A DNA stretch of 64,000 nucleotides from assembly GCA_027533455.1 (NCBI GenBank), contig JAPZUC010000005.1, positions 30,175 through 94,174 of the forward strand. Reading direction: 5' to 3'. The position numbers were made by a program, and so were the translations under genes. The stretch's first letter is position 1; each line of letters begins with the position of its first letter. This stretch comes from Porphyrobacter sp. GTDB taxonomy: Bacteria > Pseudomonadota > Alphaproteobacteria > Sphingomonadales > Sphingomonadaceae. The notes beneath the pieces were generated by a model that made no database searches, was not told the origin of the DNA, and saw nothing but the letters and a program-made list of their open reading frames with translations. Below, in pieces: positions 8,788 through 41,901 of this stretch.

Positions 8788-9118
8788 ATGCCCTTCATCG
8801 CCCCGGCAACATCGCTGGAAGAGGCCTTTCTTGGCAATCGCGAGCGGCTGCAGCGTTTCCTGCGCGCGCGCGGAGCGGGGGAGGGGGCCGAAGACCTTCT
8901 GCAGGACCTGTGGCTGCGCTTTGCCGCCGCGCCCGATCCAGCAGCGGCCTGCGGGCTGGCCTACATGATGCGCGCCGCAGACCGCCTGATGATCGCCGCT
9001 ATCGCTCGGCCCGGCAGGCGAGCCACCGCGATATCGCATGGGCCGGCACCCAGTCGGGCCTTGCCGACAACATCGCCCCCGCCCAGACCCCCGTCAGCGC
9101 GGTGCTTCATGTGAAACA
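8788..9118 (+). pseudogene. ECF sigma factor remnant (frameshifted, sigma4 missing)
   Basis: Region-2 motif AEDLLQDLWLR; adding one base near 8995 restores MIDRYRSARQASHRD; no region-4 helix-turn-helix follows. Confidence 0.6.
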
Positions 9119-9429
9119 TCGCTCTGGATGGCGACCATGTAGTCGACCACCTGAGCCGCCGCAGCATCATCGACCGGAGCCTTGTATAGCTTGCGCATCT
9201 TGCCGATGATCGACTCCCACTTCTCGCGGCTGACCTTGGGCTGCTGGAGCATGGTCGAAGGCGAATGGCAGGCGGTGCAGTTTTCCAGCACCACATCGCG
9301 GCCCGGGCCATCGGGAAGCTCATTGGGATCATCGGGTGGGGTGATGCTGGCGTCCTGAAAGTTCACCGTCGGCGCGCGGTCGCAGGCGGCGATCAGCAGG
9401 GTGAGCGGGAGGAGCAGGGCGGCTCTCAT
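9094..9429 (-). CDS. Monoheme c-type cytochrome lipoprotein (SorB/SorU-like acceptor)
   Basis: Start moved to MRAALLLPLTLLIAAC (lipobox); CTACH and distal KM; 4-bp overlap with the molybdoenzyme gene. Confidence 0.8.
   Translation of the reverse strand: MRAALLLPLTLLIAACDRAPTVNFQDASITPPDDPNELPDGPGRDVVLENCTACHSPSTMLQQPKVSREKWESIIGKMRKLYKAPVDDAAAAQVVDYMVAIQSDVSHEAPR
9103..9118. other. parS-like palindrome TGCTTCATGTGAAACA
   Basis: 14/16 match to the parS consensus TGTTTCACGTGAAACA; lies in the last codons of the cytochrome c gene. Confidence 0.45.
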
Positions 9430-10637
9430 TGCGCCACCAGAGTGATGCGTTCGATCACGTTGCGGGCATAGCCCGAAGGGTTCCAGACGAGCGCGTCGGG
9501 CTGTGACAAGCCATTGGCATTGGTCGACTTCGCACCGATTCCGGTCAGGTTGCCTGACACATTCGGCAGCGTCACGCTCCAGCGGCGAAAGGCATAGGGG
9601 CCGTGTTCGTCCGGCCCGAGTTCGCATGGGACGCTCCACCCGTCGCCCACCAGTTCGACCTTGGCGAGACCCTTGTCCCCGCCGAACGCCAGCCCCTCTA
9701 GCGTCAACGGTGTGCCCTTCGTCACCGTGTCGCCATCGGCATGGCTGGTGATAAAGCTGCGCGGCGGCATCGCGGTGATGGGAGCAGTCGGGAAGTCCTT
9801 ACTCTCGGGCGTCACTGGCACCTTGGGCCAGCGGTAAGTATCTGCCATATAATGGCTTTCGTCCTCATGCTCGAGCACCTCTATGGTGCTCAGCATCTTC
9901 ACCCAATAGGTCGAGAACCAGCCCGGCACGACGATCCGCAATGGGAAGCCGTGGAGGATCGAAAGCGGCTCGTCGTTCATCGCCCAGGCGACCAGCACAT
10001 CATTGCTCTGGGCCATCTGTGTGGGCAGGGATTTGATGAACTGCGGCGCGCCATCGGTCAGCGGCACGTCGAGACCGGCGAAGCGGACACGCTTCGCACG
10101 GGGCGAGATGCCGCCTGCCTTGGCGAGCACATCGCGCAGCCGCACCCCGGTCCACTTCGCGCAGGCCATCGCACCGTTGCCCCACTGGGTGCCGGTCACG
10201 CGAGGGGTCGACAGACCGCGCCCGTTGCCCGCACACTGGTTGACGGCGACGATCGAGACATGCTCGCCGGCCGCTGCGATCTCGTCGAGCGTCAGCGAAA
10301 CCGCTTTCTTCACCGCGCCGCCCACCGCCACGCGGTGCTCGCCCGCCTTCACTTCGGTGGGCATCGCCCAGTTCCAGCGGACGAAATGGCGGTCGTTGGG
10401 AGTGATCACGCCCTCGCGGAACGCCTCCATCGGGGCCTCCAGCAGTGGCGGGCGGATGCGCTGAACGATCATCTCGCGCTTGCCTGGAAAGTCTGGGGTG
10501 GTGGGGCGCAAGCTCGGCCCGCCGGGCAGGGCAAGGTCGATCATCCCGCCGCCCAGCTTCGCTAGCGCCGGTGCGGCCAGTGCCGTCGTCCCTGCGCCTG
10601 CAATGAGCGCGCGGCGGGTGAGGCGGCCCTCCGTCAT
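9426..10637 (-). CDS. Periplasmic sulfite oxidase-family molybdoenzyme (SorA/SorT-like sulfite dehydrogenase)
   Basis: Tat leader LTRRALIAG, Mo-ligand Cys in NQCAGNGR, WTGVRLRDVL, HGFPLRIVVPGW and C-terminal WNPSGY. Confidence 0.85.
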   Translation of the reverse strand: MTEGRLTRRALIAGAGTTALAAPALAKLGGGMIDLALPGGPSLRPTTPDFPGKREMIVQRIRPPLLEAPMEAFREGVITPNDRHFVRWNWAMPTEVKAGEHRVAVGGAVKKAVSLTLDEIAAAGEHVSIVAVNQCAGNGRGLSTPRVTGTQWGNGAMACAKWTGVRLRDVLAKAGGISPRAKRVRFAGLDVPLTDGAPQFIKSLPTQMAQSNDVLVAWAMNDEPLSILHGFPLRIVVPGWFSTYWVKMLSTIEVLEHEDESHYMADTYRWPKVPVTPESKDFPTAPITAMPPRSFITSHADGDTVTKGTPLTLEGLAFGGDKGLAKVELVGDGWSVPCELGPDEHGPYAFRRWSVTLPNVSGNLTGIGAKSTNANGLSQPDALVWNPSGYARNVIERITLVAQ

Positions 10638-11248
10638 GCGTCCGCTCCCTCCAGACGGGCGATCAGCGCGCCGATTTCAGCGACTTCGAGGCCATGGACG
10701 GCGATCAGATCGCCGATATCGTCGATCCGCGCCATCTCGCCATCATCGCGCATGATCGAGCAGATCACCGCCGCATCGCCCGCGCCCGCAAGGCGAGACA
10801 GGTCGATCGAAGCCTCGCAGGCCGAAGCCCGCTCCAGCACCCCGCCTGCCTTCGCGATCAGCGGGAAGACATGGCCGGGGGAGTGAATGTGCGCGGATGT
10901 GGCCGCTTCGGCAATTGCGACCTGCACGGTATGCGCGCGGTCTGCGGCGGATATGCCGGTGGAGACGCCTTCCGACGCCTCGATCGAGCGGGCGAAAGGC
11001 CGCCCGGTCTGGCGATCAGGCCCGGGGTTGACGAGGCTGAGGCTGAGCTGCCCGGCCCGCTCCGGCGTCACCGCAAGGCAGATCAACCCGCGTCCGTGGG
11101 TTGCCATGAAGTTGATCGCTTCGGGCGTGACGTGCTTGGCGGCGATCATCAGATCGATGTCGCCGCCACGCAACCGGTCGCCCGCGATGACGACGATCCG
11201 CCCGGCGGCAATCGCTGCCAGCGCCTTTTCAAGCGCGCCGCTCATCAC
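10634..11248 (-). CDS. RibB (DHBP synthase)-fold protein with degenerate active site
   Basis: INFMATHGRGLICLA, GVSTGISAADRA and PGHVFPL are RibB-like, but the RENEGD, GHTE and CE motifs are altered. Confidence 0.75.
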   Translation of the reverse strand: MMSGALEKALAAIAAGRIVVIAGDRLRGGDIDLMIAAKHVTPEAINFMATHGRGLICLAVTPERAGQLSLSLVNPGPDRQTGRPFARSIEASEGVSTGISAADRAHTVQVAIAEAATSAHIHSPGHVFPLIAKAGGVLERASACEASIDLSRLAGAGDAAVICSIMRDDGEMARIDDIGDLIAVHGLEVAEIGALIARLEGADA

Positions 11249-11817
11249 GCAAGATCCCGTCCGGCGGCGAAGCTCTTCGCGCCCAGCACCACCTGCTTGC
11301 CGACCAGTTCCAGCTGCCCGCGCGCGCGTTCATCAAGGCATTCGCCATCGGGGGAGAACAGGCCCTGATAGGTGCGGATCGTCGCCCCCATCGGGGTCGG
11401 CCAGCCGCGCAGTGCATGGGTGATGGCGCGCATGGTCAGCAGCGTGCTCATGGAGGCCTGATCGCCGAAAGCGGTGGCGATGAGGCCCACCGCGCGGCCA
11501 TCGAGATAGGGGCGCTCGTCGCACGCAAGGTCCTCAAGGTAATCGAGCGCGTTCTTGACCACGCCCGAGATCGTGCCGTGATAGCCTGGGGCAGCGACGA
11601 GAATTCCGTCCGCCGCGCGCACCGCCTCCACCATCTCGGCGCCCATCGCGGTAGTGTAGCCCGGCCCGCGATAATGGGCGAGCGCGGCCATGTATTCGCC
11701 GCCGAACACCGTCACCTCGGCGCCATCGGCTGCGGCGACGCTGGCGGCAAGGCGCAGCGCCTGCTCAGTCGAGGAGCCGGGGTTTACCGTGCCGCCGAGG
11801 GCTACGATTCGGGTCAT
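11245..11817 (-). CDS. NAD(P)H-dependent FMN reductase (SsuE/MsuE-like)
   Basis: GGTVNPGSST phosphate loop, PGYHGTISGVVKNALD and C-terminal GWPTP. Confidence 0.85.
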   Translation of the reverse strand: MTRIVALGGTVNPGSSTEQALRLAASVAAADGAEVTVFGGEYMAALAHYRGPGYTTAMGAEMVEAVRAADGILVAAPGYHGTISGVVKNALDYLEDLACDERPYLDGRAVGLIATAFGDQASMSTLLTMRAITHALRGWPTPMGATIRTYQGLFSPDGECLDERARGQLELVGKQVVLGAKSFAAGRDLA

Positions 11818-13304
11818 GCTAGGGAAGTCCTTTCAGAGAGGTAGGCCGCGAGGCGCGCGGTTTGTTCGGGCGTGAAGTGGAGGCCGAGCTTGGTGCGCCG
11901 CCACAGGATGTCTTCGGCGGTCTGCGCCCATTCGCTGGCGACAAGGTAATCGATTTCGGCAGCGGTCATACCGTGGCCGAAATCTTCACCAAGATCGGCG
12001 CGGGTTTTGGCATTCCCGAGAAAGCCGAAGGCCAACGTGCCGTAAAGGCGGATCAGGCGATGCGCTTCGACCGGCGAGAGGAAAGGGTAGCGGCGCTCAA
12101 GTTCCGCCATTTTCGCTCCCGCCTCGGTCATACCGAAATCGCCGCCGGGCAAGGATGCGGTGCCGGTCCAGTCCTTGCCTGTCAGCTTGGGCAGGAAGGG
12201 AGCAAGCTGCTCGACCGCTTCGGCTGCGAGGTGGCGGTAGGTTGTGATCTTGCCGCCGAACACCGACAGCAGCGGCGCTTCACCCTCCGCTCCGCCGTCG
12301 ATCTCGAAGCGGTAGCCACGGGTTGCCGCCTCGGGCTTGCCGGAACCATCATCGACCAGCGGACGCACGCCGGAATAGGTCCACACCACATCCGCCGGGG
12401 TTACGGGCTTGCGGAAATATTCGGAGGCGCCTTCGCACAGATAGGCGATCTCCTCGGCGCTGGCCTTCACCTCGGCCAAGCTGCCTTCGTGATCGACATC
12501 GGTGGTGCCGATCAGGGTGAAATCCTCTTCGTAAGGAATGGCGAAGAAGATGCGCCCGTCGGGCAGCTGGAAGAAATAGGCGTATTCGTGGTCGAACAGC
12601 TTGCGCACCACGATATGCGATCCGCGCACCAACCGCATCTTCTGCGCCGAAGGCTCGCCCGCGCGGCCCAGCAGGTCGAGCACGCGCGGGCCAGCGGCGT
12701 TGACCACGGCGCGGGCACGGAAGACCTTGCCGCCCGCTTCGATCCGCCACAGATCGCCTTCGCGCGTCAGGGCTGTGACTTCGCAGCGGGTGCGCACCTC
12801 GGCACCCCTGTCGGCAGCATCGCGGGCGTTGAGGATGACGAGGCGGGCATCGTCCACCCAGCCATCGGAATAGGCGAAGGCGCGGGTATATTGCGGCTTC
12901 AGCGGTGCGCCTGCGGGGTGGCGCGTCAGGTCGACGCCCTCGGCCGAAGGCAGGCGCTTCCTGCCGCCGATATGGTCATAGAGGAACAGCCCCAGCCGCA
13001 GCAGCCAGCGCGGGCGCAGGCCAGGGCGGTGGGGCAGGATGAAACGCAGCGGCCAGATGATGTGCGGCGCAATGCCCCACAGAACCTCGCGCTCGGAAAG
13101 GCTCTCGCGCACCAGAGCGAACTCGTAATGCTCGAGATAGCGCAGCCCGCCGTGGATCAGCTTGGTGGAGTTGGACGAGGTGCCCGTCGCCAGATCGCCG
13201 CGTTCCAGCAGCAGCACCTTGGCGCCGCGCCCGGCGGCATCGCGTGCAATCCCTGCGCCGTTCACGCCGCCGCCGATCACCGCAAGGTCATAGATCTGGC
13301 TCAC
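11814..13304 (-). CDS. glpD: FAD-dependent glycerol-3-phosphate dehydrogenase family protein
   Basis: IGGGVNGAGIARDAAGRG, TSSNSTKLIHGGLRYLE, YSGVRPL and GGKITTYR; start moved to GTG 13304 (GTGA overlap). Confidence 0.85.
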   Translation of the reverse strand: MSQIYDLAVIGGGVNGAGIARDAAGRGAKVLLLERGDLATGTSSNSTKLIHGGLRYLEHYEFALVRESLSEREVLWGIAPHIIWPLRFILPHRPGLRPRWLLRLGLFLYDHIGGRKRLPSAEGVDLTRHPAGAPLKPQYTRAFAYSDGWVDDARLVILNARDAADRGAEVRTRCEVTALTREGDLWRIEAGGKVFRARAVVNAAGPRVLDLLGRAGEPSAQKMRLVRGSHIVVRKLFDHEYAYFFQLPDGRIFFAIPYEEDFTLIGTTDVDHEGSLAEVKASAEEIAYLCEGASEYFRKPVTPADVVWTYSGVRPLVDDGSGKPEAATRGYRFEIDGGAEGEAPLLSVFGGKITTYRHLAAEAVEQLAPFLPKLTGKDWTGTASLPGGDFGMTEAGAKMAELERRYPFLSPVEAHRLIRLYGTLAFGFLGNAKTRADLGEDFGHGMTAAEIDYLVASEWAQTAEDILWRRTKLGLHFTPEQTARLAAYLSERTSLA

Positions 13305-14398
13305 CGGATCACCCACTCGGCAAAGGCGAGCGCCGTCACGAGCGAAGCGATGGTCGCCGCCAGCACCGGCATTACCGACCGCCAGCCGAGGCCGAGCAGA
13401 AGGTCAGTGCGGGTGCGCATTGCGGTGGCGGTAACCGCGATCAGAAGCAAAGTCTTGGACAAGGTCAGCGCGGCGCCGGCGATCTCGGCGGGCAGAGTGA
13501 CGAGCGAGTTCAGCCCCACCAGCGCCAGAAAGGCGAGGATGAAGCCCGGCAGCACCGGCACCCGCGCACGGCCCACGCCCGCGGGCAGCGGCTGGACGCG
13601 CGCGATCCACAGGGCGGCGAGCGTCACCAGCGGCGCCAGCAGGGCGACACGGGTGAGCTTCACCACGGTCGCCTGTGCGCCGGCCGCGTCGGACACGGCG
13701 AAGCCTGCGCCGATCGCTTGCGCAACGTCATGGATCGATGCCCCAACAAGGAAGCCCGCCTGCGCATCCGAAAAGCCGAGCATCTGGGTGAGCGGCGGAT
13801 AGGCGATCAGCGCGATGGCGCTGGCAGCGGCGAGGATCACCAGTGTCAGCGTGAACTGCGCCTGGTCGATCCGCTCGCGCCCGATCACGCCGTATAGCGC
13901 CAGCGCGGCCGAGGCTCCGCAGATCGCGGTCGCGCCGCCGCCGAGCAGGCCGATGGCGGGGCTTTGCCGCGTAAACCGCGCGGCGGCGAGGGCGGCGACC
14001 AGCGCCGATATCATCACCAGCGCAAGGCCGATGAAAGGCACCAGCCCCATCGCCACCACCTGCATCACCGTGACCTGAAAGCCGAGCAGCGCGATGCCTG
14101 CGCGAAGGCCGTGGCGCGACACCGCGTCCAGCCCGTCATGCGTGCGCGGATCACCGGAGGCGAAGTTGAGCGACAGGCCCAGCAGCAGTCCGGCAAGGAT
14201 CACCGGCACGCCGTAATTCTGGGCAAGCCATGCGGCAGCAGCGCCCGCGATGGCCGAGATGGCAAGCCCGGGAATGAAGCGCGAGAGCGGCTTCTTTTCC
14301 GCTTTGCCCGCGCCTGTCGCAGTGGTGTCGGCGAGCATGATTTCGCCGTACAGATCGCCTGCAAAAGCCTCGAAATCGGGGGCTGGCCCACGCTTCAT
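13301..14398 (-). CDS. YeiH/putative sulfate exporter family membrane protein
   Basis: ICGASAALA, GASIHDVAQAIGAG and VKLTRVALL; about 10 TM segments. Confidence 0.85.
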   Translation of the reverse strand: MKRGPAPDFEAFAGDLYGEIMLADTTATGAGKAEKKPLSRFIPGLAISAIAGAAAAWLAQNYGVPVILAGLLLGLSLNFASGDPRTHDGLDAVSRHGLRAGIALLGFQVTVMQVVAMGLVPFIGLALVMISALVAALAAARFTRQSPAIGLLGGGATAICGASAALALYGVIGRERIDQAQFTLTLVILAAASAIALIAYPPLTQMLGFSDAQAGFLVGASIHDVAQAIGAGFAVSDAAGAQATVVKLTRVALLAPLVTLAALWIARVQPLPAGVGRARVPVLPGFILAFLALVGLNSLVTLPAEIAGAALTLSKTLLLIAVTATAMRTRTDLLLGLGWRSVMPVLAATIASLVTALAFAEWVIR

Positions 14399-14479
14399 GC
14401 CTGATCGATCCTGCTCTGTCTCACGGTGTCACATCCCTATCCCGCACCGCATTCCTTTGCAACCATAGGCGGTGCGCGG

Positions 14480-15745: not shown

Positions 15746-15794
15746 GGGTTCCTAACGGGGCAGGGCGGACAAGAGCAAGCGTTGGCCGAGACAC

Positions 15795-15822
15795 AAAAGG
15801 CCGCCGGATCGCTCCGACGGCC
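15795..15822 (-). terminator. Intrinsic terminator/attenuator downstream of TonB receptor
   Basis: Minus strand GGCCGTCGGA-GCGA-TCCGGCGGCC followed by TTTT. Confidence 0.7.
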
Positions 15823-15847
15823 CTTGTGTTGTCATCGCCGGAGCGGA

Positions 15848-18175: not shown

Positions 18176-18341
18176 AGTGTAATTCTCCCCTCTGGACATG
18201 ATCAGCTCTTTCGGGCGGGTGTTGCAGATTTCCGCCCGTGCGGTCGATCTTTGGCCTGTCGGGTTGCGCTGCCGGCTCGGCTATGTCAAGCGGTGTCAGA
18301 GCGAGCCAAGGGACAGGCCGGCAAAGGAATCCGGGACGGGA

Positions 18342-21325: not shown

Positions 21326-21326
21326 T

Positions 21327-22241
21327 ATGAGTGAACTGCCCCTTCCGCCGACCACCCGGACGCTTGGTGCCAGCGGCATTGCCGTCTCGCCCATCGCCTG
21401 GGGGATGTGGCGCCTGGCCGAGAACGGCCGCACGGCTGCGGACGCCGCCAAGCTGGTCCACGCGGCTCTGGATGCAGGGATCACCTTCCTCGATACCGCC
21501 GATATCTACGGCTTCGATGGCAGCGGCGGCTTCGGCGATGCCGAGGCGCTGCTGGGCGAGGTGATCGCCGCCGAGCCTGCCTTGCGTGACCGGATGGTGC
21601 TGGCGACCAAGGGCGGCATCCTCCCGCCGCTCCCTTACGACCAGAGCGCGGATTACTTGGGGGCGGCGGTCGATGCATCGCTGCGCCGCCTGCAAGTGGA
21701 CAGCGTCGACCTGTGGCAGATCCACCGGCCCGATATTCTCGCCCACCCGCAGGAGACCGCCCGCGTGCTCGATGATGCGGTGGCCTCGGGGAAAATCCGT
21801 AGCCTCGGCGTGTCGAACTTCACGATGGCGCAGACGGCGGCGCTCCAACACTTCCTCGGCAACAAGCTGGCGACGACCCAGCCCGAGATCAGCCCGCTGC
21901 GGATCGACTGCTTCGAGAACGGGGAGCTGGATCAGGCGATGATGCTGGGCCTCACCCCGATGGCATGGTCGCCGCTGGGTGGCGGACGTCTCGCCGCGCC
22001 GGAGACTGCGCGCGACAAGGCGGTCGCCGCCGCGCTGGACGCCGTGGCGCAGGCGCAGGGCGTCTCGCGCACGGTCGCGGCCTATAGCTGGCTGATGGCG
22101 CACCCTGCCGGGATCGTGCCGATCATCGGCTCGCAGACACCTGCGCGCATTGCCGAGGGCGCACAGGCGCTCAACGTGCGCTGGACGCGGACGGATTGGT
22201 ACGCGGTGCTCGTCGCCGCGCGTGGAGAGAGGCTGCCCTGA
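21327..22241 (+). CDS. Aldo/keto reductase, probable 6-oxo-glucose reductase (SmoB/SquF-like)
   Basis: WGMWRL, DTADIYG, LATKGGI, IHRPD, LGVSNF and AWSPLGGG; lies between the SQase and the monooxygenase. Confidence 0.75.
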   Translation: MSELPLPPTTRTLGASGIAVSPIAWGMWRLAENGRTAADAAKLVHAALDAGITFLDTADIYGFDGSGGFGDAEALLGEVIAAEPALRDRMVLATKGGILPPLPYDQSADYLGAAVDASLRRLQVDSVDLWQIHRPDILAHPQETARVLDDAVASGKIRSLGVSNFTMAQTAALQHFLGNKLATTQPEISPLRIDCFENGELDQAMMLGLTPMAWSPLGGGRLAAPETARDKAVAAALDAVAQAQGVSRTVAAYSWLMAHPAGIVPIIGSQTPARIAEGAQALNVRWTRTDWYAVLVAARGERLP

Positions 22242-23326
22242 TGACACAACAATGCGAAATCGCGTGGTTCTCCGCGCTGTGCGACGACGATTACGAATTT
22301 CTCGGCGTCCCCGATCCCTATCTCGCCTCGAGCTGGGAGCATTGCCGCAATCTCGTGATGCGCGCCGAGGAAGGCGGGTTCGACAACATCCTGCTGCCCT
22401 CGGGCTACCAGCTGGGCGTGGACACCACGATCTTCGCCGCCGCCGTCGCCACCCAAGTCAAGCGCATCAAACTGCTCTGGGCGACCCGCATGGGCGAAGA
22501 CTGGCCGCCGCAGCTCGCGCGCCGCATCGCCACGCTGGACCGCATCCTCGGGCCGAATGCGAGCGGCACCGGTGGGCGGCTGAACGTCAATATCATCTCC
22601 TCGGACATGCCGGGCGAGAAGATCGAGAGCGCCCCGCGTTACCGCCGCGGCACCGAGATCATGAAGATCGTCAAGACGCTGCTGAACGGCGAGCATCTCG
22701 ATTTCGATGGCGAGTTCTACAAGCTAAAGCTCGATCCGCCGCGCATCACCACGCTCAGCGGCAAGTGCCCGCCGTTCTATTTTGGCGGCCTCAGCCACGA
22801 GGCGCGCGAATGCGCGGCCGAGGCGGCGGATGTCTACCTGATGTGGCCCGACACGATGGACAAGGTCCGCGAGAATATCGCCGACCTCAAGGTCCGCGCC
22901 GCCAACTATGGCCGGACTTTGAAGTTCGGCTACCGCGCCCACGTGATCGTGCGCGAGACCGAGGACGAGGCGCGCCACTATGCCGACCGGCTGCTGTCCA
23001 AACTGGACGATGAAACCGGCCGCGCGATCCGCGAGAAGAGCCTCGATGCCAAGAACTACGGCGTCCAGCGCCAGCAGGAACTGCGCGGGGCCGCCGATGG
23101 CGACGGCTTCGTCGAGGAGAACCTGTGGACCGGCATCGGCCGCGCGCGCTCGGGCTGCGGGGCGGCGATTGTCGGCACGCCCGATCAGGTGCTCGCCAAG
23201 CTGCGCGCCTATCAGGCCGAGGGGATCGAGGCGTTCATCCTGTCAGGCTATCCGCACATGCAGGAAGCCGACCTGTTCGCCCGCCACGTGCTGCCGCACA
23301 TCCAGCATGGGCCGCTGGAGATGTAG
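22241..23326 (+). CDS. LLM-class flavin-dependent monooxygenase, probable sulfoquinovose monooxygenase (SmoC/SquD-like)
   Basis: AWFSALCDDDYEFLG, GRLNVNIISSD, FYFGGLS, LWTGIGRARSGCGAAIVG and FILSGYPH; start overlaps the AKR stop. Confidence 0.75.
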   Translation: MTQQCEIAWFSALCDDDYEFLGVPDPYLASSWEHCRNLVMRAEEGGFDNILLPSGYQLGVDTTIFAAAVATQVKRIKLLWATRMGEDWPPQLARRIATLDRILGPNASGTGGRLNVNIISSDMPGEKIESAPRYRRGTEIMKIVKTLLNGEHLDFDGEFYKLKLDPPRITTLSGKCPPFYFGGLSHEARECAAEAADVYLMWPDTMDKVRENIADLKVRAANYGRTLKFGYRAHVIVRETEDEARHYADRLLSKLDDETGRAIREKSLDAKNYGVQRQQELRGAADGDGFVEENLWTGIGRARSGCGAAIVGTPDQVLAKLRAYQAEGIEAFILSGYPHMQEADLFARHVLPHIQHGPLEM

Positions 23327-23419: not shown

Positions 23420-23479
23420 AATTGGGATGAGAGGAAAACTCCTACAGCCCGCACGACAAAAAATGTTGGTCGGTCTGGC

Positions 23480-23548
23480 GACCCCCTCGCGCGACTCAAA
23501 CCGGCCTTTGACCCCCTCCAGCCCCCCCCTTTGACCCCGCCAGACCCC
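23480..23548 (+). repeat. Phased GACCCC/C-tract motifs upstream of parS-like site
   Basis: GACCCC at 23480, 23510, 23533 and 23543, and GCCCCC at 23521. Confidence 0.55.
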
Positions 23549-23569
23549 TTTCAGGGGTGCCCTAAAACG

Positions 23570-23585
23570 TGTTTCTCGTGAAACA
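23570..23585. other. parS-like palindrome TGTTTCTCGTGAAACA
   Basis: 15/16 match to TGTTTCACGTGAAACA, intergenic. Confidence 0.65.
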
Positions 23586-23701: not shown

Positions 23702-24898
23702 ATGAACCTCGAATTCACCCCCGAAGAGCAGGCCTTCCGCGAGGAAGTCCGCAGCTTCATCGCCGAAAACTATCCCAAGCACCTCGCCGACTTCGGGATG
23801 CGCGAAGACATGAGCCGCGAGGACTTCCTCGCCTGGCACAAGATCCTCGGCAAAAAGGGCTGGTCCGTCCCCGCATGGCCGGTCGAATATGGCGGCACCG
23901 GCTGGACGCCGACGCAGCGCTACATCTGGTCGGAAGAAAACGCCCGCGCCAGCACCGTCATGCCGCTGCCCTTCGGCGTTTCGATGGTCGGCCCGGTGAT
24001 CTACACCTTCGGCAATGCCGAGCAGAAAGCGAAGCACCTTCCCGGCATCGTCTCGGGCGATGTGTGGTGGTGTCAGGGTTACTCGGAGCCGGGCGCCGGT
24101 TCCGACCTCGCCAGCCTCAAGACCACCGCCGTGCGTGACGGCGATCACTATGTGATCAACGGCCAGAAGACCTGGACGACGCTGGCCCAGCACGCGGACT
24201 GGGGCTTCTTCCTGTGCCGCACCGATCCGACTGCCAAGGCGCAGGAAGGCATCAGCTTCATCCTCGTCGACATGAAGACGCCGGGCGTGGAAGTGAAGCC
24301 GATCAAGCTGCTGGACGGCGGCTACGAGGTCAACGAGACCTGGCTGACCGACGTGCGCGTGCCGGTCGAAAACCTCGTCGGGGTCGAGAACAAGGGCTGG
24401 ACCTATGCCAAGTTCCTGCTCGCCCACGAACGCTCCGGCATTGCCGGCGTGGCGCGCTCGAAGCGCGGGATCGAGAAGCTGCGCGAGATCGCCGCGAACG
24501 AGACCCTTGATGGCGCTCCGCTGATCAAGGACTTCGATTTCGCCAAGAAGGTGAGCCAGCTCGAGATCGATCTGGCCGCGCTGGAAATCACTGAACTGCG
24601 CACCCTTGCTGGCGAGCAGGCGGGCAAGGGACCGGGGCCGGAAAGCTCGATCCTCAAGATCAAGGGCACCGAAATCCAGCAGCGCCTGACCGAGCTGACG
24701 CTGGAAGCGGTCGGCACCTATTCCGCGCCGTACATGGGCGGGGTCTCGAACGACAACGGCTCCAACGAGCATCCGGTCGGCCCCGATTATGCCCAACACG
24801 CCGCGGCGACCTATTTCAACATGCGCAAGACCTCGATCTACGGCGGATCGAACGAGATCCAGCGCAACATCATCACCAAGATGATCCTCGGCCTCTAA
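23702..24898 (+). CDS. Acyl-CoA dehydrogenase, catalytic subunit (PimC-like)
   Basis: WCQGYSEPGAGSDLASL, NGQKTWTT and IYGGSNEIQRNII with catalytic Glu. Confidence 0.9.
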   Translation: MNLEFTPEEQAFREEVRSFIAENYPKHLADFGMREDMSREDFLAWHKILGKKGWSVPAWPVEYGGTGWTPTQRYIWSEENARASTVMPLPFGVSMVGPVIYTFGNAEQKAKHLPGIVSGDVWWCQGYSEPGAGSDLASLKTTAVRDGDHYVINGQKTWTTLAQHADWGFFLCRTDPTAKAQEGISFILVDMKTPGVEVKPIKLLDGGYEVNETWLTDVRVPVENLVGVENKGWTYAKFLLAHERSGIAGVARSKRGIEKLREIAANETLDGAPLIKDFDFAKKVSQLEIDLAALEITELRTLAGEQAGKGPGPESSILKIKGTEIQQRLTELTLEAVGTYSAPYMGGVSNDNGSNEHPVGPDYAQHAAATYFNMRKTSIYGGSNEIQRNIITKMILGL

Positions 24899-29831: not shown

Positions 29832-29891
29832 GATGATTAGTCCTCGCATCGTCAGCGCCCAGAGAAGCGCGAACCCGAGAGGAGACCAACC

Positions 29892-32354: not shown

Positions 32355-32375
32355 CGAACCGGTTCTGAGGCAAAG

Positions 32376-32411
32376 GGGCTGGCCGCCATTCTCCCCCCCG
32401 GCGGCCAGCCC
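32376..32411 (+). other. 12-bp GC-rich stem-loop between TBDR and GH68 (no U-tract)
   Basis: GGGCTGGCCGCC ... GGCGGCCAGCCC; probably an mRNA-stabilising or attenuating hairpin. Confidence 0.55.
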
Positions 32412-32438
32412 TATACCTTGTTGATGTGACGTGACGGG

Positions 32439-33557
32439 ATGAAGCGCGCGATGACCACCGCGATGATGGGCGTCTGGACAGCCGAACAGGTCCGCGGGAT
32501 CGCAGGCCCGCCCGGTCCGGCGACGCTGATCCCGGCGGTTGCAACGGCGGATCGATCCGCGCTCGATCCCGCCCGGCTGTATTGGGATATGTGGCCGGTG
32601 CAGGACGCGGCCGGGCACCGCGTGACCATCGCCGGAAGGCAGATGTGGATGGCGCTGACCGCGCCTGATCGCGGCGATCCGGCGCTCCGCCATTTCGAGG
32701 CAAAGATCCACTGGCTCGAACGCAAAGACGAGTGCTGGTACGACCTCGGCCCTGTGCTGCCTTCAGGCAGAACCGTACCTTACGAACGCGAATGGGCCGG
32801 CTCCGCATTGCTCGATGATGGCGTGGTGACGCTGTTCTTCACCGCTGCGGGAACCTCGGCGCGGGCAGGGGGCTACCAGCAGGAATTGTGGGCCGCCCAT
32901 GCCGCCGTCGGCGCGGATGGCTGGCCGGGCGAATGGTCCGATCCCGCGCCGCTCGTGACCGGATACGGCCCGCACTACATGCCGGCCGATGCGCACGAGG
33001 GCGAGGCCGGCAAGATCAAGGCCTTCCGCGATCCGGCCTATTTTCGCGATCCGGCGGACGGCGCCGAATATATCGCTTTCACCGCCTCGCTGGCGGGATC
33101 GGGCAGCGCGTTCAACGGTGCGCTCGGAATGGCGCGTCGCACCCCTTCAGGGTGGGTCTTGACCCCCCCTTGCCTCCACGCAGAGGGCGTCAACAACGAG
33201 CTTGAGCGCGCCCATCTGGTGTTCCACGGGAAACATTACTACGCGTTCTGGTCGACGCAGACCGTGACCTTTGCTGAAGGGCTGCGGCATGCACCGGGGG
33301 GATTGTACGGCATGGTGGCAGACAGCATGGCAGGCCCGTGGCGGCCGCTGAATGGCACCGGACTGGTGCTCGCCAATCCGGCAGACCGGCCCCAGCAGAC
33401 CTATAGCTGGTATGTCGACGCCAGCCTCACTGTATGCAGCTTCGTTGATGTTCTGCCTGATGGCAGCTTTGGCGGCCTGCCCGCCCCGCTGATGCAGCTG
33501 GAGCTTGAAGGCGAGAAGGCGGCGCTGCGCCCGCTGGCTTCGCAGAGCGCCGCGTGA
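32439..33557 (+). CDS. GH68 levansucrase/invertase-family glycoside hydrolase, no signal peptide
   Basis: Catalytic triad motifs YWDMWP, EWAGS, FRDP and NELER, plus YSW. Confidence 0.85.
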   Translation: MKRAMTTAMMGVWTAEQVRGIAGPPGPATLIPAVATADRSALDPARLYWDMWPVQDAAGHRVTIAGRQMWMALTAPDRGDPALRHFEAKIHWLERKDECWYDLGPVLPSGRTVPYEREWAGSALLDDGVVTLFFTAAGTSARAGGYQQELWAAHAAVGADGWPGEWSDPAPLVTGYGPHYMPADAHEGEAGKIKAFRDPAYFRDPADGAEYIAFTASLAGSGSAFNGALGMARRTPSGWVLTPPCLHAEGVNNELERAHLVFHGKHYYAFWSTQTVTFAEGLRHAPGGLYGMVADSMAGPWRPLNGTGLVLANPADRPQQTYSWYVDASLTVCSFVDVLPDGSFGGLPAPLMQLELEGEKAALRPLASQSAA

Positions 33558-34429: not shown

Positions 34430-34471
34430 GAATTCTCCCGCCTCCCGTGATAAGTGCGGACAGAGAGGGAG

Positions 34472-35391: not shown

Positions 35392-35999
35392 CGCAGCGCG
35401 AAGGCTTCTTTCGCCAGCGCCTCGATCACTGCCTTGTCAGGCGCGCCCTTGGGCGAAACCCAGCTGCCGCCGACGCACAGGACCGGGTCAAAGGCGAGCC
35501 ATTCGGGTGCGTTTTCCAGGCTGATCCCGCCCGTCGGGCAGAACCTGCACTGGCCAAACGGCGCGGCGAGGGCCTTCAACGCGGGCAGGCCCCCTGCCGC
35601 CATCGCCGGGAAGAACTTGAACCGGTCGAGGCCCAGATCGAGCCCGCGCATGATATCGCCCGCATTGGCGATACCGGGGAGGAAGGGCACGCCCGCCGCG
35701 ATCGCCGCCTTGCCCAGCGTGTCGGTGAGGCCGGGGGAGACGATGAACTCGCTCCCCGCCTCCAGTGCCGCATCAAGCTCGCGCGGGTTGGTGACAGTGC
35801 CCGCCCCGACAATCGCGCCCGGCACCTGCTTCATCGCCCGGATCGCGCCGAGCGCGGCAGGCGTGCGCAGCGTGACTTCGAGTACGCGCAATCCGCCCGC
35901 AACCAGCGCCTCGGCCAGCGGAACGGCGTGGGCTTCGTCTTCGATTACGATAACCGGAATGACCGGCGCCGTGCGCATGATGGCGTCGATGTTCATCAC
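35388..35999 (-). CDS. eda: KDPG aldolase
   Basis: LEVTLRT, GAGTV, FIVSPG, KFFPA and FCPTGG. Confidence 0.95.
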
Positions 36000-37807
36000 A
36001 TTCCTCCGGTGTCGAGCATCGCGGATGCGCCCTGTTCGGCCCCGTCGGCAAAGCGGCGCATCATGCCGAACAGCTCGCGGCCCGTGCCGCTATCGGGGTG
36101 GGGATCGGCGGCGATTTCGCGCGCCGGGAGATCGGCGCTGGTCGAAAGCCCGCCCGTCACCGCGCAGACGCGCACGATGTCGCCATCACGCAGGCGCGCC
36201 AGCGGCCCGCCGCCCAATGCTTCGGGTGTGCAGTGGATCGCGGCGGGGACCTTGCCGCTCGCGCCCGACATGCGGCCATCGGTGACCAGCGCGACCTTGA
36301 AGCCGCGGTCCTGCAACACGCCCAAGGGCGGGGTGAGCTTGTGGAGTTCGGGCATCCCGTTGGCGCGCGGGCCCTGGAAGCGGACGACGACCACCACGTC
36401 GCGGTCAAGCTCCCCGGCCTTGAAGGCGTTGGCGACCGAGACCTGATCCTCGAACACGCGGCACGGGGCTTCCACCGTCCAGCGGCTTTCGTCTACAGCC
36501 GAAGTCTTGAAGCAGGCGCGACCGAGATTGCCTTCGAGCAGCCGCATCCCGCCGTCGGGCTTGAAAGCCCTGGCGACCGGGCGGAGCATCGTGTCGTCGC
36601 CCGAGGGGCCGACCTCGCGCCACACCAGATCCTCGCCCTCGAAACCCGGCTCCTTCGCATATTCGGCAAAGCCCCCGCGCCCGACGGTGAGGATATCGGG
36701 GTGGGCCAGCCCTTCGGCCAGCAGTTCCCCGATCACGAAGCCCATGCCGCCCGCGTTGTGGAAGTGGTTCACGTCGCCCGCGCCGTTGGGATAGACCTGC
36801 GCGATCAGCGGCACGGCGCTGGAAAGGTCCGAAAGGTCGTTCCAGTCGAAGATCACCCCCGCCGCGCGCGCCATTGCAGGCAGGTGGATCGCGTGGTTGG
36901 TCGATCCGCCGGTCGCCAGCAGGCCCACGGCCGCGTTAACGATCGCCTTTTCGTCCACGACGAGGCCGAGCGGGCGGTAATCATCGCCCTTGCGGCCGAT
37001 CTGTGCGACGCGGTGCACCGCCTCGCGGTCGAGCGCCTGCCGCAGCTTGGTGCCCGGATTGATGAAGGCGCTGTTGGGGACGTGCAGCCCCATCATTTCC
37101 ATCATCATCTGGTTGGAATTGGCCGTGCCGAAGAAGGTGCAGGTGCCCTGCGAATGGTAGCTGCCCATCTCGCTGGCGAGCAGTTCGGCGCGGGTCGCCT
37201 TGCCTTCGGCATAGAGCTGGCGGACGCGCTGCTTTTCCTTGTTGGGGATGCCGCTCGGCATCGGCCCGCCGGGGACGAAGATCATCGGCAGGTGGCCGAA
37301 CCGCAGCGCGCCCATCAACAGCCCCGGCACGATCTTGTCGCAGATGCCCAGCATCAGCGCGCCGTCGAACATCGCGTGGCTGAGCGCAACCGCAGTTGAG
37401 AGGGCGATCACATCGCGGCTGAAGAGCGAGAGCTCCATCCCCGTCTCGCCCTGCGTCACCCCGTCGCACATCGCCGGAACGCCGCCCGCAACCTGCGCGG
37501 TGGCGCCGATCTCGCGGGCGTAGATCTTCAGACGCTCGGGGTAGCGGTAATAGGGCGCATGAGCCGAGAGCATGTCGTTGTAGGCGGTGACGATGCCGAT
37601 ATTCGCGCCCCGGCCTGCGACCAGTGCCGCCTTGTCCTCCTCCATCCCCGCATAGGCATGGGCGAGGTTCGAGCACGAGACGGCATTGCGCTCGCCCATG
37701 TTGTCGCCCTCGCGGCGGATCAGGTCGAGATAGGCGCTGCGGCTCGCGCGCGAGTTTTCGGTCACGCGCTGCGTCACCTTGTGGAGGGTGTCGTTGAGGC
37801 TACTCAT
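35996..37807 (-). CDS. edd: 6-phosphogluconate dehydratase
   Basis: [35 protein letters not shown] and [10 protein letters not shown]. Confidence 0.95.
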
Positions 37808-39239
37808 GCCACGTTACTCCGTCGCGTTCGGCGAGCGCGATCGCCGCAGAAGGCCCCCAGCTGCCGGCGGTGTAGGTCTTGGGGGTGAGGCCGTCCGCCG
37901 CCCAGCCGGCGCGGATCGCGTCGACCCATTCCCACTGCGCTTCCACCTCGTCGCGGCGGACAAACAGCGTCTGGTCACCCTCGACCAGATCGAGCAACAG
38001 GCGTTCATAGGCGATGCGCCGCACCGCGCCGCTGAAGGCATCGGGCATGGCGATGTTGAGCGGGACGGAACGCAGGCGGATGCCCTCGCGGTCCAGCCCG
38101 GGCACCTTGGCCATCAGCGAGAGGGTGATGTTCTCTTCGGGCTGGATGCCGATCACCAGCTGGTTGGGCCGCATCGTCGCGCCTTTTCCGGCGAAGATCG
38201 AGTGCGGCACGCAGCGGAACTGGATCACGATCTCGGTCACGCGCTTGGGCATGCGCTTGCCGGTGCGCAGGTAGAAGGGCACGCCCTTCCAGCGCCAGTT
38301 ATCGACATGCGCCTTGATTGCGACGAAGGTTTCGGTGTCGCTGCCCTTGCCGAGCTCCTCGTCATAGCCCGGCACCGCCTGCCCGCCGATCGCGCCGGCA
38401 CGGTACTGGCCGGTGACGGTCTCCTGCGAGGTGACACCGCGCAGCGCGCGCAGCACCTTGACCTTCTCGTCACGCACCGCGGTCGCATCGAAATGCGCGG
38501 GCGGCTCCATCGCCACCAGCGCGAGCAGTTGAAGCATGTGGTTCTGCACCATGTCGCGGATGGCACCGGCATCGTCGTAGAAGGCAACGCGCCCTTCCAG
38601 GCCGACGGTCTCGGCCACGGTGATCTGCACATGGTCGATGTGGGCCGCATTCCACAGCGGCTCGAACATAAGGTTGGCAAAGCGCAGCGCGAGCAGGTTC
38701 TGCACCGTCTCCTTGCCGAGATAGTGATCGATCCGGAAGATGCGGCTCTCGGGGAAGGCCCCGGCCACCGCGTCGTTGATCTCGCGGCTGGTGGCGAGAT
38801 TGGTGCCGAGGGGCTTTTCGAGGCACATCCGCACCGTCTCGCCCGTCAGCCCGGCTGATTGCAGCCCCTTGATGGTCGGCTCGAACAGGCTCGGCGCGGT
38901 CGAGAGGAAGATCGCAAGGCCGCGCTCCGGCGCGCCGACTTTCTCGGCCAGCGCGGCATAGCCCTCCAGCGTGGTCGCATCGAGCGGCTGGTAGGACAGG
39001 CGGTTGAGGAACCCCGCCATGCTCCCGCGGCGTTCGGCAGGGAGATACTTCTCCAGTGCGGCGCGGGCAAAGTTGCGGTATTCGCCATCGGACATGCTGC
39101 TGCGCGCGGTGCCGACGATCTTGAGATCAGGCGCGAGCAATCCGTCGGCATCAAGCGCGAACAGGCTCGGCAACAGCATGCGCTGGGCAAGGTCGCCGGT
39201 GGCTCCGAACAGCAGCAGGCGGTCAGCGGTGAAGCTCAT
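37800..39239 (-). CDS. zwf: Glucose-6-phosphate 1-dehydrogenase
   Basis: [22 protein letters not shown] and [13 protein letters not shown]. Confidence 0.95.
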
Positions 39240-39300
39240 GCACGTGGCCCTTTCCCTCGTGCGTCCTACCTAGGCGCGCGGGGGATTATCCGCCAGTAGG

Positions 39301-39316
39301 CGCATACTTATTCAAG
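39301..39316. promoter_or_regulatory. Candidate LacI operator upstream of zwf
   Basis: CGCATACTTATTCAAG, identical to 45743-45758; pseudo-palindromic core GAATAAGTATGC on the minus strand. Confidence 0.55.
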
Positions 39317-40601
39317 CAGGCTTGCGGGCGAAGATTCCGAAGCCCGCGATGATCGCGTAGCACGCTGCCGGCAGAACCAGCGCGAAGGCGAGGCTCGTCG
39401 CATCTGCGAGCGCGGCATACATCGGCGGGATGATCGCGCCGCCGCAGATCGCGACGTTGATGATCCCCGATCCATCGGCCGCGCGCGGACCCAGCTTCTC
39501 GCAGGCAAGGGAGAAGATGGTCGGGAACATGATCGCGTTCATCAGACCCACGGCGAGCAGCGAATAACCCGCGACCGCGCCAGTCGTGTTAGCCGAGATC
39601 GCGATGAGCGTGATCGCGCCAGCGGCTACACCCGCGAGCGTCAGGCCCGGGCTGACCATGCGCAGAACGACCGAGCCGATAAAGCGGCCCACCAGCGCGC
39701 CGCCCCAATACAGCGAGATCAGCTTGCCAGCATCCTGTTCGGCGATGTTCAGCACTTCGGCCTGCATCAGGTAATTGACGATGAAGCTGCCGATCGCGAC
39801 CTCCGCGCCGACATAGAGGAAGATGCAGGCCGCGCCGTATCCGAAGCGCGGACGCTTCAGCAGCGCGAGGCCATCGGAAAGGCTGGTCTGTTCGTGCTTC
39901 TCGCCCTTGAGGCGATTGCGGAACAGCCACACTACGCCCGCCACCACAGCCAGCGCGGCAGCAAGGCCGAGGTAGCCGTTGACGATGGCCTGGCTTTCCG
40001 CGGTGCGATAGGCGACGAGTTCCGCGCCGGACAGTTCGGCTGCGGTTACAGTGGCAAGGCTGCCAAGGATCAGGATCGCGCCGACATAGGGAAAGATCGT
40101 CGTCCCCAGCGAATTGAATGCTTGCGCGAAGGTCAGGCGGCTGTGCGTCGTACGCTCCGGCCCAAGCAGGCTGATAAGCGGGTTGGCGACGATCTGCACC
40201 AGCACCACGCCGGTCGCGAGCACGAAATAGGCGAACAGGAACATCGGGAACAGCGCAGTCTGGCTCGCCGGAATGAACATCAGGCAGCCCGCCATCATGG
40301 TGACGAGGCCCGCGACCGCGCCGCGCATGTAGCCCAGCTTCTTGACCAGCCGCGCGCCCGGAATGCCGACCACCGCATAGGCGATGAAGAAGCAGAACTG
40401 GACAAGGCTCGCTTCGAAGAAGTTGAGGGTAAACAGCTCTTTCAGCTTGGGAATGATCACATCGTTCAGCGAGGTGATCCCGCCGAAGATGAAGAACAGC
40501 GCGAAGACGAAATAATTGAGGCCCGGGGCATGCACCTGCGGCGCATCGCTCGACCCATCACCCACGGCAGTCGCCGCACTCACCCCAGGTGCCATCGCCA
40601 T
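39312..40601 (-). CDS. gluP: Glucose/galactose MFS transporter (GluP/FucP family)
   Basis: FFIFGGITSLND, ANPLISLLG, QAFNSLG, YVGAEV and MFPTIFSL; start moved to ATG 40601 behind GGGAGAG. Confidence 0.85.
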   Translation of the reverse strand: MAMAPGVSAATAVGDGSSDAPQVHAPGLNYFVFALFFIFGGITSLNDVIIPKLKELFTLNFFEASLVQFCFFIAYAVVGIPGARLVKKLGYMRGAVAGLVTMMAGCLMFIPASQTALFPMFLFAYFVLATGVVLVQIVANPLISLLGPERTTHSRLTFAQAFNSLGTTIFPYVGAILILGSLATVTAAELSGAELVAYRTAESQAIVNGYLGLAAALAVVAGVVWLFRNRLKGEKHEQTSLSDGLALLKRPRFGYGAACIFLYVGAEVAIGSFIVNYLMQAEVLNIAEQDAGKLISLYWGGALVGRFIGSVVLRMVSPGLTLAGVAAGAITLIAISANTTGAVAGYSLLAVGLMNAIMFPTIFSLACEKLGPRAADGSGIINVAICGGAIIPPMYAALADATSLAFALVLPAACYAIIAGFGIFARKPA

Positions 40602-40756
40602 TGTCGCTCTCTCCCATAGCGCGCTGTGCTTATTGCTAACGTTCACAATCCGCGCGCAATCTCAGAAATGCAAGCCCCGGCTGCACAAATCCAGTGCGAA
40701 TAGCAATGCAAGCGCGGCTTGCGCCCTGAGGCCCAGAGGCCCTAGAAGCTTCGGCC

Positions 40757-41794
40757 ATGAGCGGGGGACCGAAAAGACGGCCGACATCTTTCGATGTGGC
40801 GGAGCGGGCGGGCGTCAGCCAGCCGACGGTCAGCCGTGCGCTGTCCGGTTCGCCCGCGATTGCCGAAGCGACCCGTCGCAAAGTCATCGAAGCTGCCGAG
40901 GCGCTTGGTTATTTCGTTGATGAACGCGCCGCGCGGCTGCGGCGCGGATCGACCGGGACGCTGGCGGTGGTGGTCATCTGCCGCGAAGGCGACAGCGCGT
41001 CGAGCATCAATCCCTTCGCCTATGCGCTGCTCGGCTCGGTCTGCGTGGCGGCATCGGAACGCGGGTTCGAGACGCTGGTGAGCTTCCAGGCGCGGCCCGA
41101 GGATTTCTTCGGCCACTATCAGGAGCAGGGCCGCGCGGACGGCCTCGTGGTGATCGGCACCACCACCAACGCTGCCGCGTGGGAGCATTTCCGCGCGCTG
41201 GAAGACGAGGGGCGCAAGGTCGTCTACTGGGGCTCGCCCTATGACGAACTTGATTGGGTGCGTTCGGATAACCGCGCCGCAGGGCGCCTCGCGGTCGAGC
41301 ATCTCTTGGCGCAGGGCTACAAGCGCCCGTGCTTCCTCGGCGCGCTGAACACGCCGCAGGTGCAGTTCACCGAACGCTATGAAGGCTATGCCGAAGGGAT
41401 GCGCGCGGCGGGGCTGGAGCCATGCCTTGCCCCCACCGTCAACGCCGCTTCCCGCGAGGAGGAAGGCCGCCGCGCCGCGCGCCGGCTGATCGAGCGCGGC
41501 ATGATCGAACAGGGGGATGTCGACGCGGTGTTCGCCGCCTGCGACGCGATGGCGCTGGGCGCGATCGAAGCCTTTGCCTCCGCCGATCTCAGCGTGCCGC
41601 AGGCCGTGGGCGTTATGGGGTTCGACGATCTGGTCGCAGGCCGCTTCAGCCGACCGCCTCTCACCACGCTTGCGCCAGATCCGGCCGAAGCGGGCGCGGC
41701 GCTGGTCGAAGCGGTGCTCGACGATTATACCGCGAATGCCCGCCGCCGCGTGCCGGTAAAACTGATCGCGCGCGGTAGTTCGATGCGCGCCTGA
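40757..41794 (+). CDS. LacI-family regulator, probable glucose/ED regulator
   Basis: TSFDVAERAGVSQPTVSRAL; MGFDD and PPLTT; divergent from gluP. Confidence 0.9.
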   Translation: MSGGPKRRPTSFDVAERAGVSQPTVSRALSGSPAIAEATRRKVIEAAEALGYFVDERAARLRRGSTGTLAVVVICREGDSASSINPFAYALLGSVCVAASERGFETLVSFQARPEDFFGHYQEQGRADGLVVIGTTTNAAAWEHFRALEDEGRKVVYWGSPYDELDWVRSDNRAAGRLAVEHLLAQGYKRPCFLGALNTPQVQFTERYEGYAEGMRAAGLEPCLAPTVNAASREEEGRRAARRLIERGMIEQGDVDAVFAACDAMALGAIEAFASADLSVPQAVGVMGFDDLVAGRFSRPPLTTLAPDPAEAGAALVEAVLDDYTANARRRVPVKLIARGSSMRA

Positions 41795-41804
41795 CCGGCG
41801 GTCA

Positions 41805-41863
41805 GACCCCTCCAGATCGCGTTATGCTTGGGCTAGACCCCGCTTCGACCCCCACCAGACCCC
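41805..41863 (+). repeat. Phased GACCCC motifs upstream of parS-like site
   Basis: GACCCC at 41805, 41836, 41847 and 41858 (last three exactly 11 bp apart). Confidence 0.6.
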
Positions 41864-41885
41864 GTTTTCGCGGGGTTCGCGGCGC

Positions 41886-41901
41886 GGTTTCACGTGAAAT
41901 A
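41886..41901. other. parS-like palindrome GGTTTCACGTGAAATA
   Basis: 14/16 match with intact 12-bp core TTTCACGTGAAA, between convergent genes. Confidence 0.6.

Follow-up and report, generated by a model that had tools for sequence, protein, structure and literature searches.

The question raised by this locus is why three palindromes resembling parS should lie, each behind a helically phased C-rich tract, in a 64,000-nucleotide stretch of the genome of a Porphyrobacter sp. (the window: contig C3, positions 30175-94174, of a 2.89-Mb assembly with 64.5% G+C, here G000). ParB-parS is the textbook bacterial centromere, and since ectopic parS disturbs segregation and SMC-driven arm alignment in model species, a chromosome should have few such sites and have them near the origin. 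The answer that we favour, at a probability of roughly 0.6 and on the strength of sequence comparisons, is that the window sites are part of a lineage-specific, vertically inherited network of extra chromosomal parS, most of which carry a phased, putatively cis-acting array. This network comprises about 45-80 sites per genome, approximately one per 55 kb, over the whole chromosome and beyond the normal cluster of 7-8 sites beside parAB. Throughout, a parS-like site is a 16-bp palindrome scored by its mismatches against TGTTTCACGTGAAACA (the parS consensus used as a test being TGTTNCACGTGAAACA), an array-bearing palindrome has at least two AGACCC-type units within 100 bp on one side, and a strict array has at least three phased units. 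The parS-like sites and arrays of the window are the following.

9071..9102, + strand: array of site 1, with units catcgccccc (9071-9080) and cccagaccccc (9082-9092); short and decayed
9103..9118, no strand: palindrome of site 1, TGCTTCATGTGAAACA; 2 mismatches, a weak or decaying copy
23478..23569, + strand: array of site 2, with units gcgaccccc (from 23478), ctttgaccccc (23506-23516), tccagcccccc (23518-23528), ctttgaccccg (23529-23539) and ccagacccc (23540-23548)
23570..23585, no strand: palindrome of site 2, TGTTTCTCGTGAAACA; 1 mismatch
41802..41885, + strand: array of site 3, with units tcagacccc (41802-41810), tccagatcg (41811-41819, degenerate), ctagacccc (41833-41841), ttcgaccccc (41844-41853) and ccagacccc (41855-41863)
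41886..41901, no strand: palindrome of site 3, GGTTTCACGTGAAATA; 2 mismatches
33220..33235, no strand: fourth parS-like 16-mer, TGTTCCACGGGAAACA; 2 mismatches, without a phased array and of uncertain membership in the set

The window thus holds four sites within three mismatches of TGTTTCACGTGAAACA against 0.03 expected. GACCCC hexamers number 38 against 42 expected, and as the hexamer is not enriched the signal must lie in its arrangement. The earlier note on this DNA had described C-rich motifs about one helical turn apart before each palindrome, and these are indeed recovered as YYAGACCCC units with 11-bp spacing, in register and far beyond chance. GACCCC itself is exact at 9086, at 23480, 23510, 23533 and 23543, and at 41805, 41836, 41847 and 41858, whereas the motifs placed at 9075 and 23521 are degenerate (CGCCCC and AGCCCC respectively). 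The offsets given for the last unit, 17, 27 and 28 bp before the palindrome, are correct; at site 1 the A of AGACC lies 18 bp before it, and sites 2 and 3 have proximal stretches of 21 and 22 bp between the last unit and the palindrome. The 21-bp stretch of site 2 happens to form a CCCCT/AGGGG hairpin. A CCCC-loop-GGGG hairpin had been proposed as a part of the composite, and this has to be abandoned, as it accompanies only 4 of the 52 array-bearing copies in this genome, two of them those of the window, and 1 of 41 copies in a relative with a complete chromosome of 3,090,363 bp (G003), whose flanking genes show ~80% nucleotide identity to those of G000. The G003 orthologue of site 2 has no such hairpin.

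The three sites are real, but they are three of about 45-60 dispersed sites per genome, a scale that the note missed. This genome contains 68 palindromes with at most two mismatches (15 perfect, 32 with one and 21 with two) and 73 with at most three, distributed over nearly all contigs. At least two units are found on one side of 52 of these 73 palindromes, as against 5.7% of random positions. The unit can be written YYAGACCCC(N2), with a conserved AGACCC core, and adjacent units are spaced by exactly 11 bp in 45 of 82 cases genome-wide. Strict arrays number 31 in the genome and none in the reversed genome; a palindrome lies within 80 bp downstream of 24 of the 31 and upstream of none. Phased arrays hardly occur away from parS, rather than being equally frequent at random intergenic sites. 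Their polarity does not vary, each array lying 5' of the palindrome on the C-rich strand, and the distance from unit to palindrome is 18, 29/30, 40, 51 or 62 bp, so that 45 of 50 copies fall in the same third of the helical turn (Rayleigh p about 1e-15). Base composition tabulated by phase shows periodicity in the apparent spacer as well, with T enriched at three phases and C at four, the two groups being half a turn from each other, which implies that the array extends to the palindrome. Intergenic copies mostly have a one-sided array of 80-110 bp, with YYAGACCCCNN grading into YTTTGSC near the palindrome, and the arrays consist of 3-8 tandem 11-bp units. They resemble iterons in being repeated directly and in tandem, once every helical turn, around a conserved core.

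Comparison with G003 indicates how these sites have evolved. That genome has 63 sites, of which 52 are perfect, 11 have one mismatch and none has two. When the flanks of G003 sites were mapped onto G000 and a palindrome of at most three mismatches was sought at the same place, one was found for 49 of the 52 mappable sites. In an ungapped comparison of 39 orthologous pairs the identity is ~0.92 over the 16-mer and ~0.33, which is near random, outside it, except that flank identity peaks at 0.55-0.6 every 11 bp. Drawing twice, independently, from the periodic profile would produce roughly such peaks; the pattern has been kept and the sequence has not. The dinucleotide before AGACCC is likewise genome-specific at orthologous loci, being CC, TT or CT in G000, CC or TC in G003 and CT or TT in another relative, G059. 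Tandem units that change in concert look like iterons read by a co-evolving protein, as far as their sequence can tell; gene conversion or an intrinsic bending role for the arrays is also possible. With its fixed polarity, helical register, periodic pattern kept in orthologues and genome-specific flavour, the composite does behave as the oriented accessory element tied to parS that had been proposed from the window, and these features would suit a cis element that either is read by a trans factor or serves as a bending tract.

Selection on the 16-mer is seen also at an intragenic site (C12:97471), which is a perfect parS in five genomes with dispersed sites, G003, G004, G005, G007 and G018, has one mismatch in G001 and two in G000, and is replaced by unrelated GCTTCGACATGGAGCA-like codons in genomes without dispersed sites. 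This comparison implies that a parS was made by substitutions within a gene and then kept. From such alignments the sites are old and under strong purifying selection, and not a recent repeat burst.

The window sites, too, have orthologues. Site 2 corresponds to a perfect TGTTTCACGTGAAACA at 1,806,477 in G003, with an array at 1,806,4xx. At the orthologue of site 1 (L154, G003:1,791.8 kb) the array has three units and an insert of ~22 bp interrupts the parS. A parS split by a similar insert is found at three loci in all, the others being L155 (G003:899.8 kb) and G000 C13:181135; its form is TGTTTCACGTGGAAGC-gaagctctacgaagta-GAAACA, which represents either a variant that was copied or a second right half-site at a distance of two helical turns. 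Site 3, past a phosphoenolpyruvate carboxylase (PEPC)-like gene, has orthologues in L001, L002, L003, L006, L007 and L016, where the spacers are unalignable and GGGGTCT units are retained; the palindrome is perfect in L002, L003 and L007. The element at this locus is absent from about 20 other relatives, and all carriers fall in one well-supported clade. In L004, L013, L014, L020 and L026 the spacer past the PEPC-like gene has no parS element and contains other hairpin repeats (such as tcccctcccttgagggagggga and ggggaccgcgacccgcagggtcggggtgga), which marks it as a hot spot for several repeat families.

These data bear on the proposal that the composite is a selfish non-autonomous mobile repeat, akin to miniature inverted-repeat transposable elements (MITEs), repetitive extragenic palindromes (REPs) or bacterial interspersed mosaic elements (BIMEs), whose end is or mimics parS, whose arrays are transposase-binding or structural and whose copies are neutral relics. 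The 52 array-bearing copies in this genome are, like those of such families, numerous and intergenic, and about 45 loci with one architecture do require a copying step. The copies also occupy non-disruptive places, with 50-52% in convergent spacers as against a background of 19% and 3-11% in divergent ones, and they fill the whole spacer, with 1-32 bp between stop codon and palindrome. Filled and empty sites are found within one clade at the PEPC locus, where at least three changes are needed, and the split parS recurs with its insert at three different loci. Against this stand the shared positions (49 of 52 at ~80% nucleotide identity), the near-perfect palindrome amid randomised surroundings, the parS that arose by substitutions within a gene, the co-variation of the copies with the centromere variant described below, and their avoidance of each other within 8 kb. 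Apart from some loss or gain at the PEPC locus we saw neither insertion polymorphism nor recent identical copies, the copies sharing motifs rather than sequence. Inspection of the aligned copies by eye revealed neither a terminal inverted repeat partner nor a second end, target-site duplications and transposases not having been sought systematically, and a BLAST search with two representative elements returned no plasmid counterpart, which also speaks against a plasmid origin. We consider a mobile repeat improbable as the account of what the sites now are; it may describe the origin of the element rather than its maintenance.

The gene context of the copies invites a second alternative, namely that the array is a transcription or structure device, such as a C-rich Rho-utilisation tract, a terminator or a G-quadruplex (G4)/i-motif, which shields parS from transcription at gene 3' ends or couples it to the same. 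The array side meets a gene 3' end in 83% of copies in G000 and 74% in G003, and an mRNA arriving from that side would carry the C-rich strand. However, the palindrome side also prefers 3' ends (63-67%), among co-directional copies array-first and palindrome-first arrangements number 16 and 8, which is not significant and weakens the case for a Rho-terminator, and some elements lie between co-directional, probably co-transcribed genes. A canonical G4 motif (G3+N1-7 x4) is present in 25% of elements in G000, 41% in G003, 79% in G059 and 5% in G004, compared with 0.26% of random windows; it is far from universal across copies and lineages, most G000 copies are without it, and the arrays of G004 are neither C-rich nor supplied with G-runs. 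The conserved AGA is needed by neither a rut site nor a G4. Folding is inconsistent (z from -3.0 to +0.9) and the window has no Rfam match, which likewise disposes of an RNA element. A device of this kind is therefore, in our estimation, quite unlikely to explain the arrays.

Site 2 of the window lies between genes for a luciferase-like monooxygenase (22196-23326, + strand) and an acyl-CoA dehydrogenase (23702-24898, + strand). The palindrome of site 3 is 18 bp past the stop codon of the PEPC-like gene (41919-44684, - strand), and the spacer is convergent, with a LacI-family gene on its other side (40757-41794, + strand). The 16-mer at 33220-33235 is located inside a GH68 levansucrase-like gene (32439-33557, + strand); its central CGGG/CCCG variant is also present at several sites of the genomes G062 and G152. 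Separately, a perfect array-less parS (G000 C13:138575, G003:99,999, G004 L152) is conserved in three species and overlaps the putative start (GTG TTT CAC GTG AAA CAT) of a gene encoding an Ada-like methyltransferase/regulator.

The identity of the protein reading the sites is indicated by the centromere itself. In G000 the centromere cluster, seven perfect or near-perfect sites at C17:338.5-343.3 kb, lies beside parB (C17:337.2 kb), the cognate ParB being recognised by its ParB_N domain at C17:337194-337475 with 113 bits; this parAB-adjacent cluster is without arrays. The parAB cluster of G003 (950.1-954.9 kb) has the same sequence as the dispersed sites, the 52 perfect TGTTTCACGTGAAACA sites of that genome being found in cluster and dispersed positions alike. 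G059 has no more than 3 T-variant sites for its 83 array dimers, and the arrays are followed by TGTTCCACGTGGAACA; of the 52 perfect copies of this variant, 7 form a cluster with the spacings typical of the parAB locus. The TGTTCCACGTGGAACA sites of G059 occupy loci orthologous to T-variant sites; for example, the orthologue of window site 2 (L187) has both an array and TGTTCCACGTGGAACA. As the dispersed sites switch variant with the centromere, genome by genome, we infer from this co-variation that ParB reads them. In a full-length ParB alignment the recognition-helix segment is KSRSHIANMHRL in G059 and KSRSHVANMMRL in G003 and G000, the changes in G059 being V to I and M to H, and this difference is at most suggestive. 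That the dispersed palindromes are read mainly by another protein, be it a Noc-like paralogue or an unrelated regulator with the arrays as its extended operator, is very improbable, since although the number and dispersal of the sites (about 50-80) resemble Noc or SlmA sets and G000 has a second ParB_N-containing open reading frame (680 aa, C9:12182), G003, G004 and G011 have a single ParB_N gene each, a second paralogue is not required, and the sequence of the dispersed sites is that of the centromere, with which it changes in G059.

The placement of the sites along the chromosome was followed in G003, in which sampled GC skew indicates a terminus at ~2.55 Mb and an origin at ~0.95 Mb, where the parAB cluster lies. 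The sites lie round the whole 3.09-Mb circle, terminus included, rather than near the origin. Outside the cluster they are never closer than 8.3 kb to one another, a minimum reached in 0 of 20,000 randomisations; their spacing is not significantly regular (coefficient of variation of the gaps 0.85 as against 0.98 at random, p 0.13). Array orientations are balanced (right arm 12+/13-, left arm 12+/10-), and 22 arrays are on the ori-proximal and 25 on the ori-distal side, so that there is no replichore bias, and the suggestion that the array might be a replichore or origin polarity signal, in the manner of the FtsK-orienting polar sequences (KOPS), is not supported. Imperfect sites gather near the terminus (Spearman 0.42, p 0.0016, a trend seen post hoc). 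They account for 7 of 8 sites at 2.40-2.86 Mb and 4 of 47 elsewhere, with no reduction in site density near the terminus, and 7 of the 11 imperfect sites are within ~300 kb of the terminus, together with one perfect site. In G000 perfect sites make up 6 of 12 within 400 kb of the origin and 2 of 31 elsewhere, again as seen post hoc.

Relatives of a flanking gene assign the organism to Porphyrobacter/Erythrobacter, in the family Erythrobacteraceae. In the sample from the order, 301 genomes from 85 genera, expansion is confined to this one genus, every other genus having 0-8 sites. The 19 nearest genomes of the same genus are divided into ten with 12-69 sites and nine with 1-4. A sample of 401 genomes from the class typically shows 0-7, with 12-36 in a few unrelated lineages; alphaproteobacterial lineages rich in parS-type sites include G529, G550, G808 and G515, with 36 in 2.0 Mb, 29 in 0.8 Mb, 18 and 16 respectively. 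Of 151 genomes sampled from the genus, about 30 contain array dimers, and each of these 30 apart from G059 has 16-86 parS-type sites. Transcript evidence was not found, the sequencing runs that contain this sequence being of metagenomic DNA only. Arrays recur at the parS sites of relatives, as the reading in the note requires, but not uniformly, as the dispersed parS of G004, G001 and G016 have another unit flavour or no array. G004 (L135-L153) has perfect dispersed parS at orthologous positions, some with 11-bp GCTTTGSC arrays and many without an array, and G001, G016 and G011 have 12-22 sites and 0-1 AGACCCC dimers.

Based on these observations we propose a mechanism in which the single chromosomal ParB would load at the dispersed sites as a cytidine triphosphate (CTP) clamp, as it does at the centromere, the array serving as a putative cis-acting accessory module. 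On our best guess the array gives a second factor a platform for binding or bending. It would most likely act like a set of iterons for a further DNA-binding protein that co-evolves with it, and/or as a tract that bends anisotropically, the latter being suggested by the alternation of T-rich and C-rich half-turns. With either, each loading site would become asymmetric, the DNA on one side of ParB being held, bent or blocked. The output would most likely be the nucleoid-wide placement of ParB and its partners rather than segregation proper; MipZ and SMC are both encoded, the open reading frame of SMC having been located directly. A bolder and rather unlikely extension is that ParB has been co-opted as a genome-wide organiser, with ~50-80 selected loading sites, each directed by its array, that coat the nucleoid with ParB clamps. 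In one form of it MipZ, an FtsZ inhibitor encoded in all these genomes, would provide a Noc-like nucleoid occlusion with weakened sites near the terminus. In the other, SMC would have many loading points and the arrays would act as CTCF does, as oriented barriers on one side. Both forms would have the arrays bind a clade-specific co-evolving factor, and such a factor would explain the genome-specific flavours of the units.

Several points weigh against a network of functional parS with accessory arrays. We infer ParB occupancy of the dispersed sites from their sequence, and the terminus gradient in site quality was noticed post hoc. About 45 copies of one architecture imply an initial copying process, so that a part of the pattern would reflect history and not function. 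Only a minority of the sites in G000 match perfectly (15 of 68), the dispersed ones being for the most part imperfect, and each of the three in the window has mismatches and may be weak or decaying here. Among genes whose 5' ends face arrays there is no obvious DNA-binding protein and hence no candidate array reader. The homogeneity of arrays within a genome could stem from gene conversion and not selection, and the register could partly result from 11-bp slippage growth from a fixed start. Finally, G004, G001 and G016 have 19-25 parS and no AGACCCC arrays, and about 9 of 55 dispersed sites in G003, as well as the intragenic sites, are without an array; the retention of such array-less and intragenic parS suggests that arrays modulate the site rather than define it.

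Full-text searches of the literature turned up no account of either dispersed parS with phased arrays or parS in Erythrobacteraceae, in agreement with the earlier note, which knew of no account of the composite. Its parts are reminiscent of several known systems. On plasmid RK2 the KorB operator OB is paired with KorA and its operator OA, and P1 parS combines box A and box B motifs with a bend induced by integration host factor (IHF), where helical phasing matters. In both, as here, a ParB-family site is paired with an adjacent site for a second protein or a phased bend; unlike the chromosomal elements, with their 3-8 units mostly at gene 3' ends, they are plasmid-borne, with one partner site or IHF bend near promoters. 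The parC locus of plasmid R1 is a type II centromere with ten 11-bp iterons for ParR. The arrays, too, repeat an 11-bp unit directly and in tandem at every turn, an arrangement that would suit a DNA-bending protein filament or ring. Here, however, genes for ParM or ParR are not evident, the units differ in sequence from those of R1, and a palindrome of type I parS goes with the array. REP and BIME families are likewise short, multi-copy, intergenic and enriched between convergent genes; the elements described here differ in having positions conserved between species, a 16-bp part that is selected and co-varying, and no conserved hairpin.

Chromosomal parS sites and ParB (Spo0J) as centromere components were reportedly described by Lin and Grossman in 1998 and by Livny, Yamaichi and Waldor in 2007. 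The 16-bp palindrome is both the consensus and the sequence of this genome's own parAB-adjacent sites, and there is one canonical ParB, yet known chromosomes keep few, near-origin sites whereas here 45-86 are found everywhere, most with a one-sided array. Loading of ParB as a CTP clamp, the step on which our proposal draws, is treated in PMC7053999 and PMC8494293. Nucleoid occlusion in Bacillus subtilis by Noc at its binding sites (NBS; PMC4331003) and in E. coli by SlmA at its own sites (SBS) provides another parallel, in tens of scattered palindromic sites, a ParB-type clamp and a hint of weakening near the terminus. In contrast to Noc, there is here no dedicated paralogue, the sites are true parS rather than NBS and are present, if imperfect, at the terminus, and they have flanking arrays, which Noc sites are not known to have; an occlusion role via ParB-MipZ may at most be surmised. 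In Pseudomonas aeruginosa dispersed parS5-10 and half-parS sites are reported (PMC5961200 and PMC10419367) and ParB binds away from the origin with a possible nucleoid-associated role, much as occupancy is predicted here. That system, however, reportedly has few full sites, many heptameric half-sites and no accessory DNA, unlike the positionally conserved full 16-mers with arrays of the present lineage.

A natural lineage with 45-86 full-strength sites all over its chromosome, at positions shared between species and co-evolving with the centromere, would mean that ParB loading sites have uses other than the segregation of origins. An array on one side only and in helical register would constitute a natural experiment on directional ParB or SMC loading, and the system is open to testing in cultivable isolates of Porphyrobacter and Erythrobacter.

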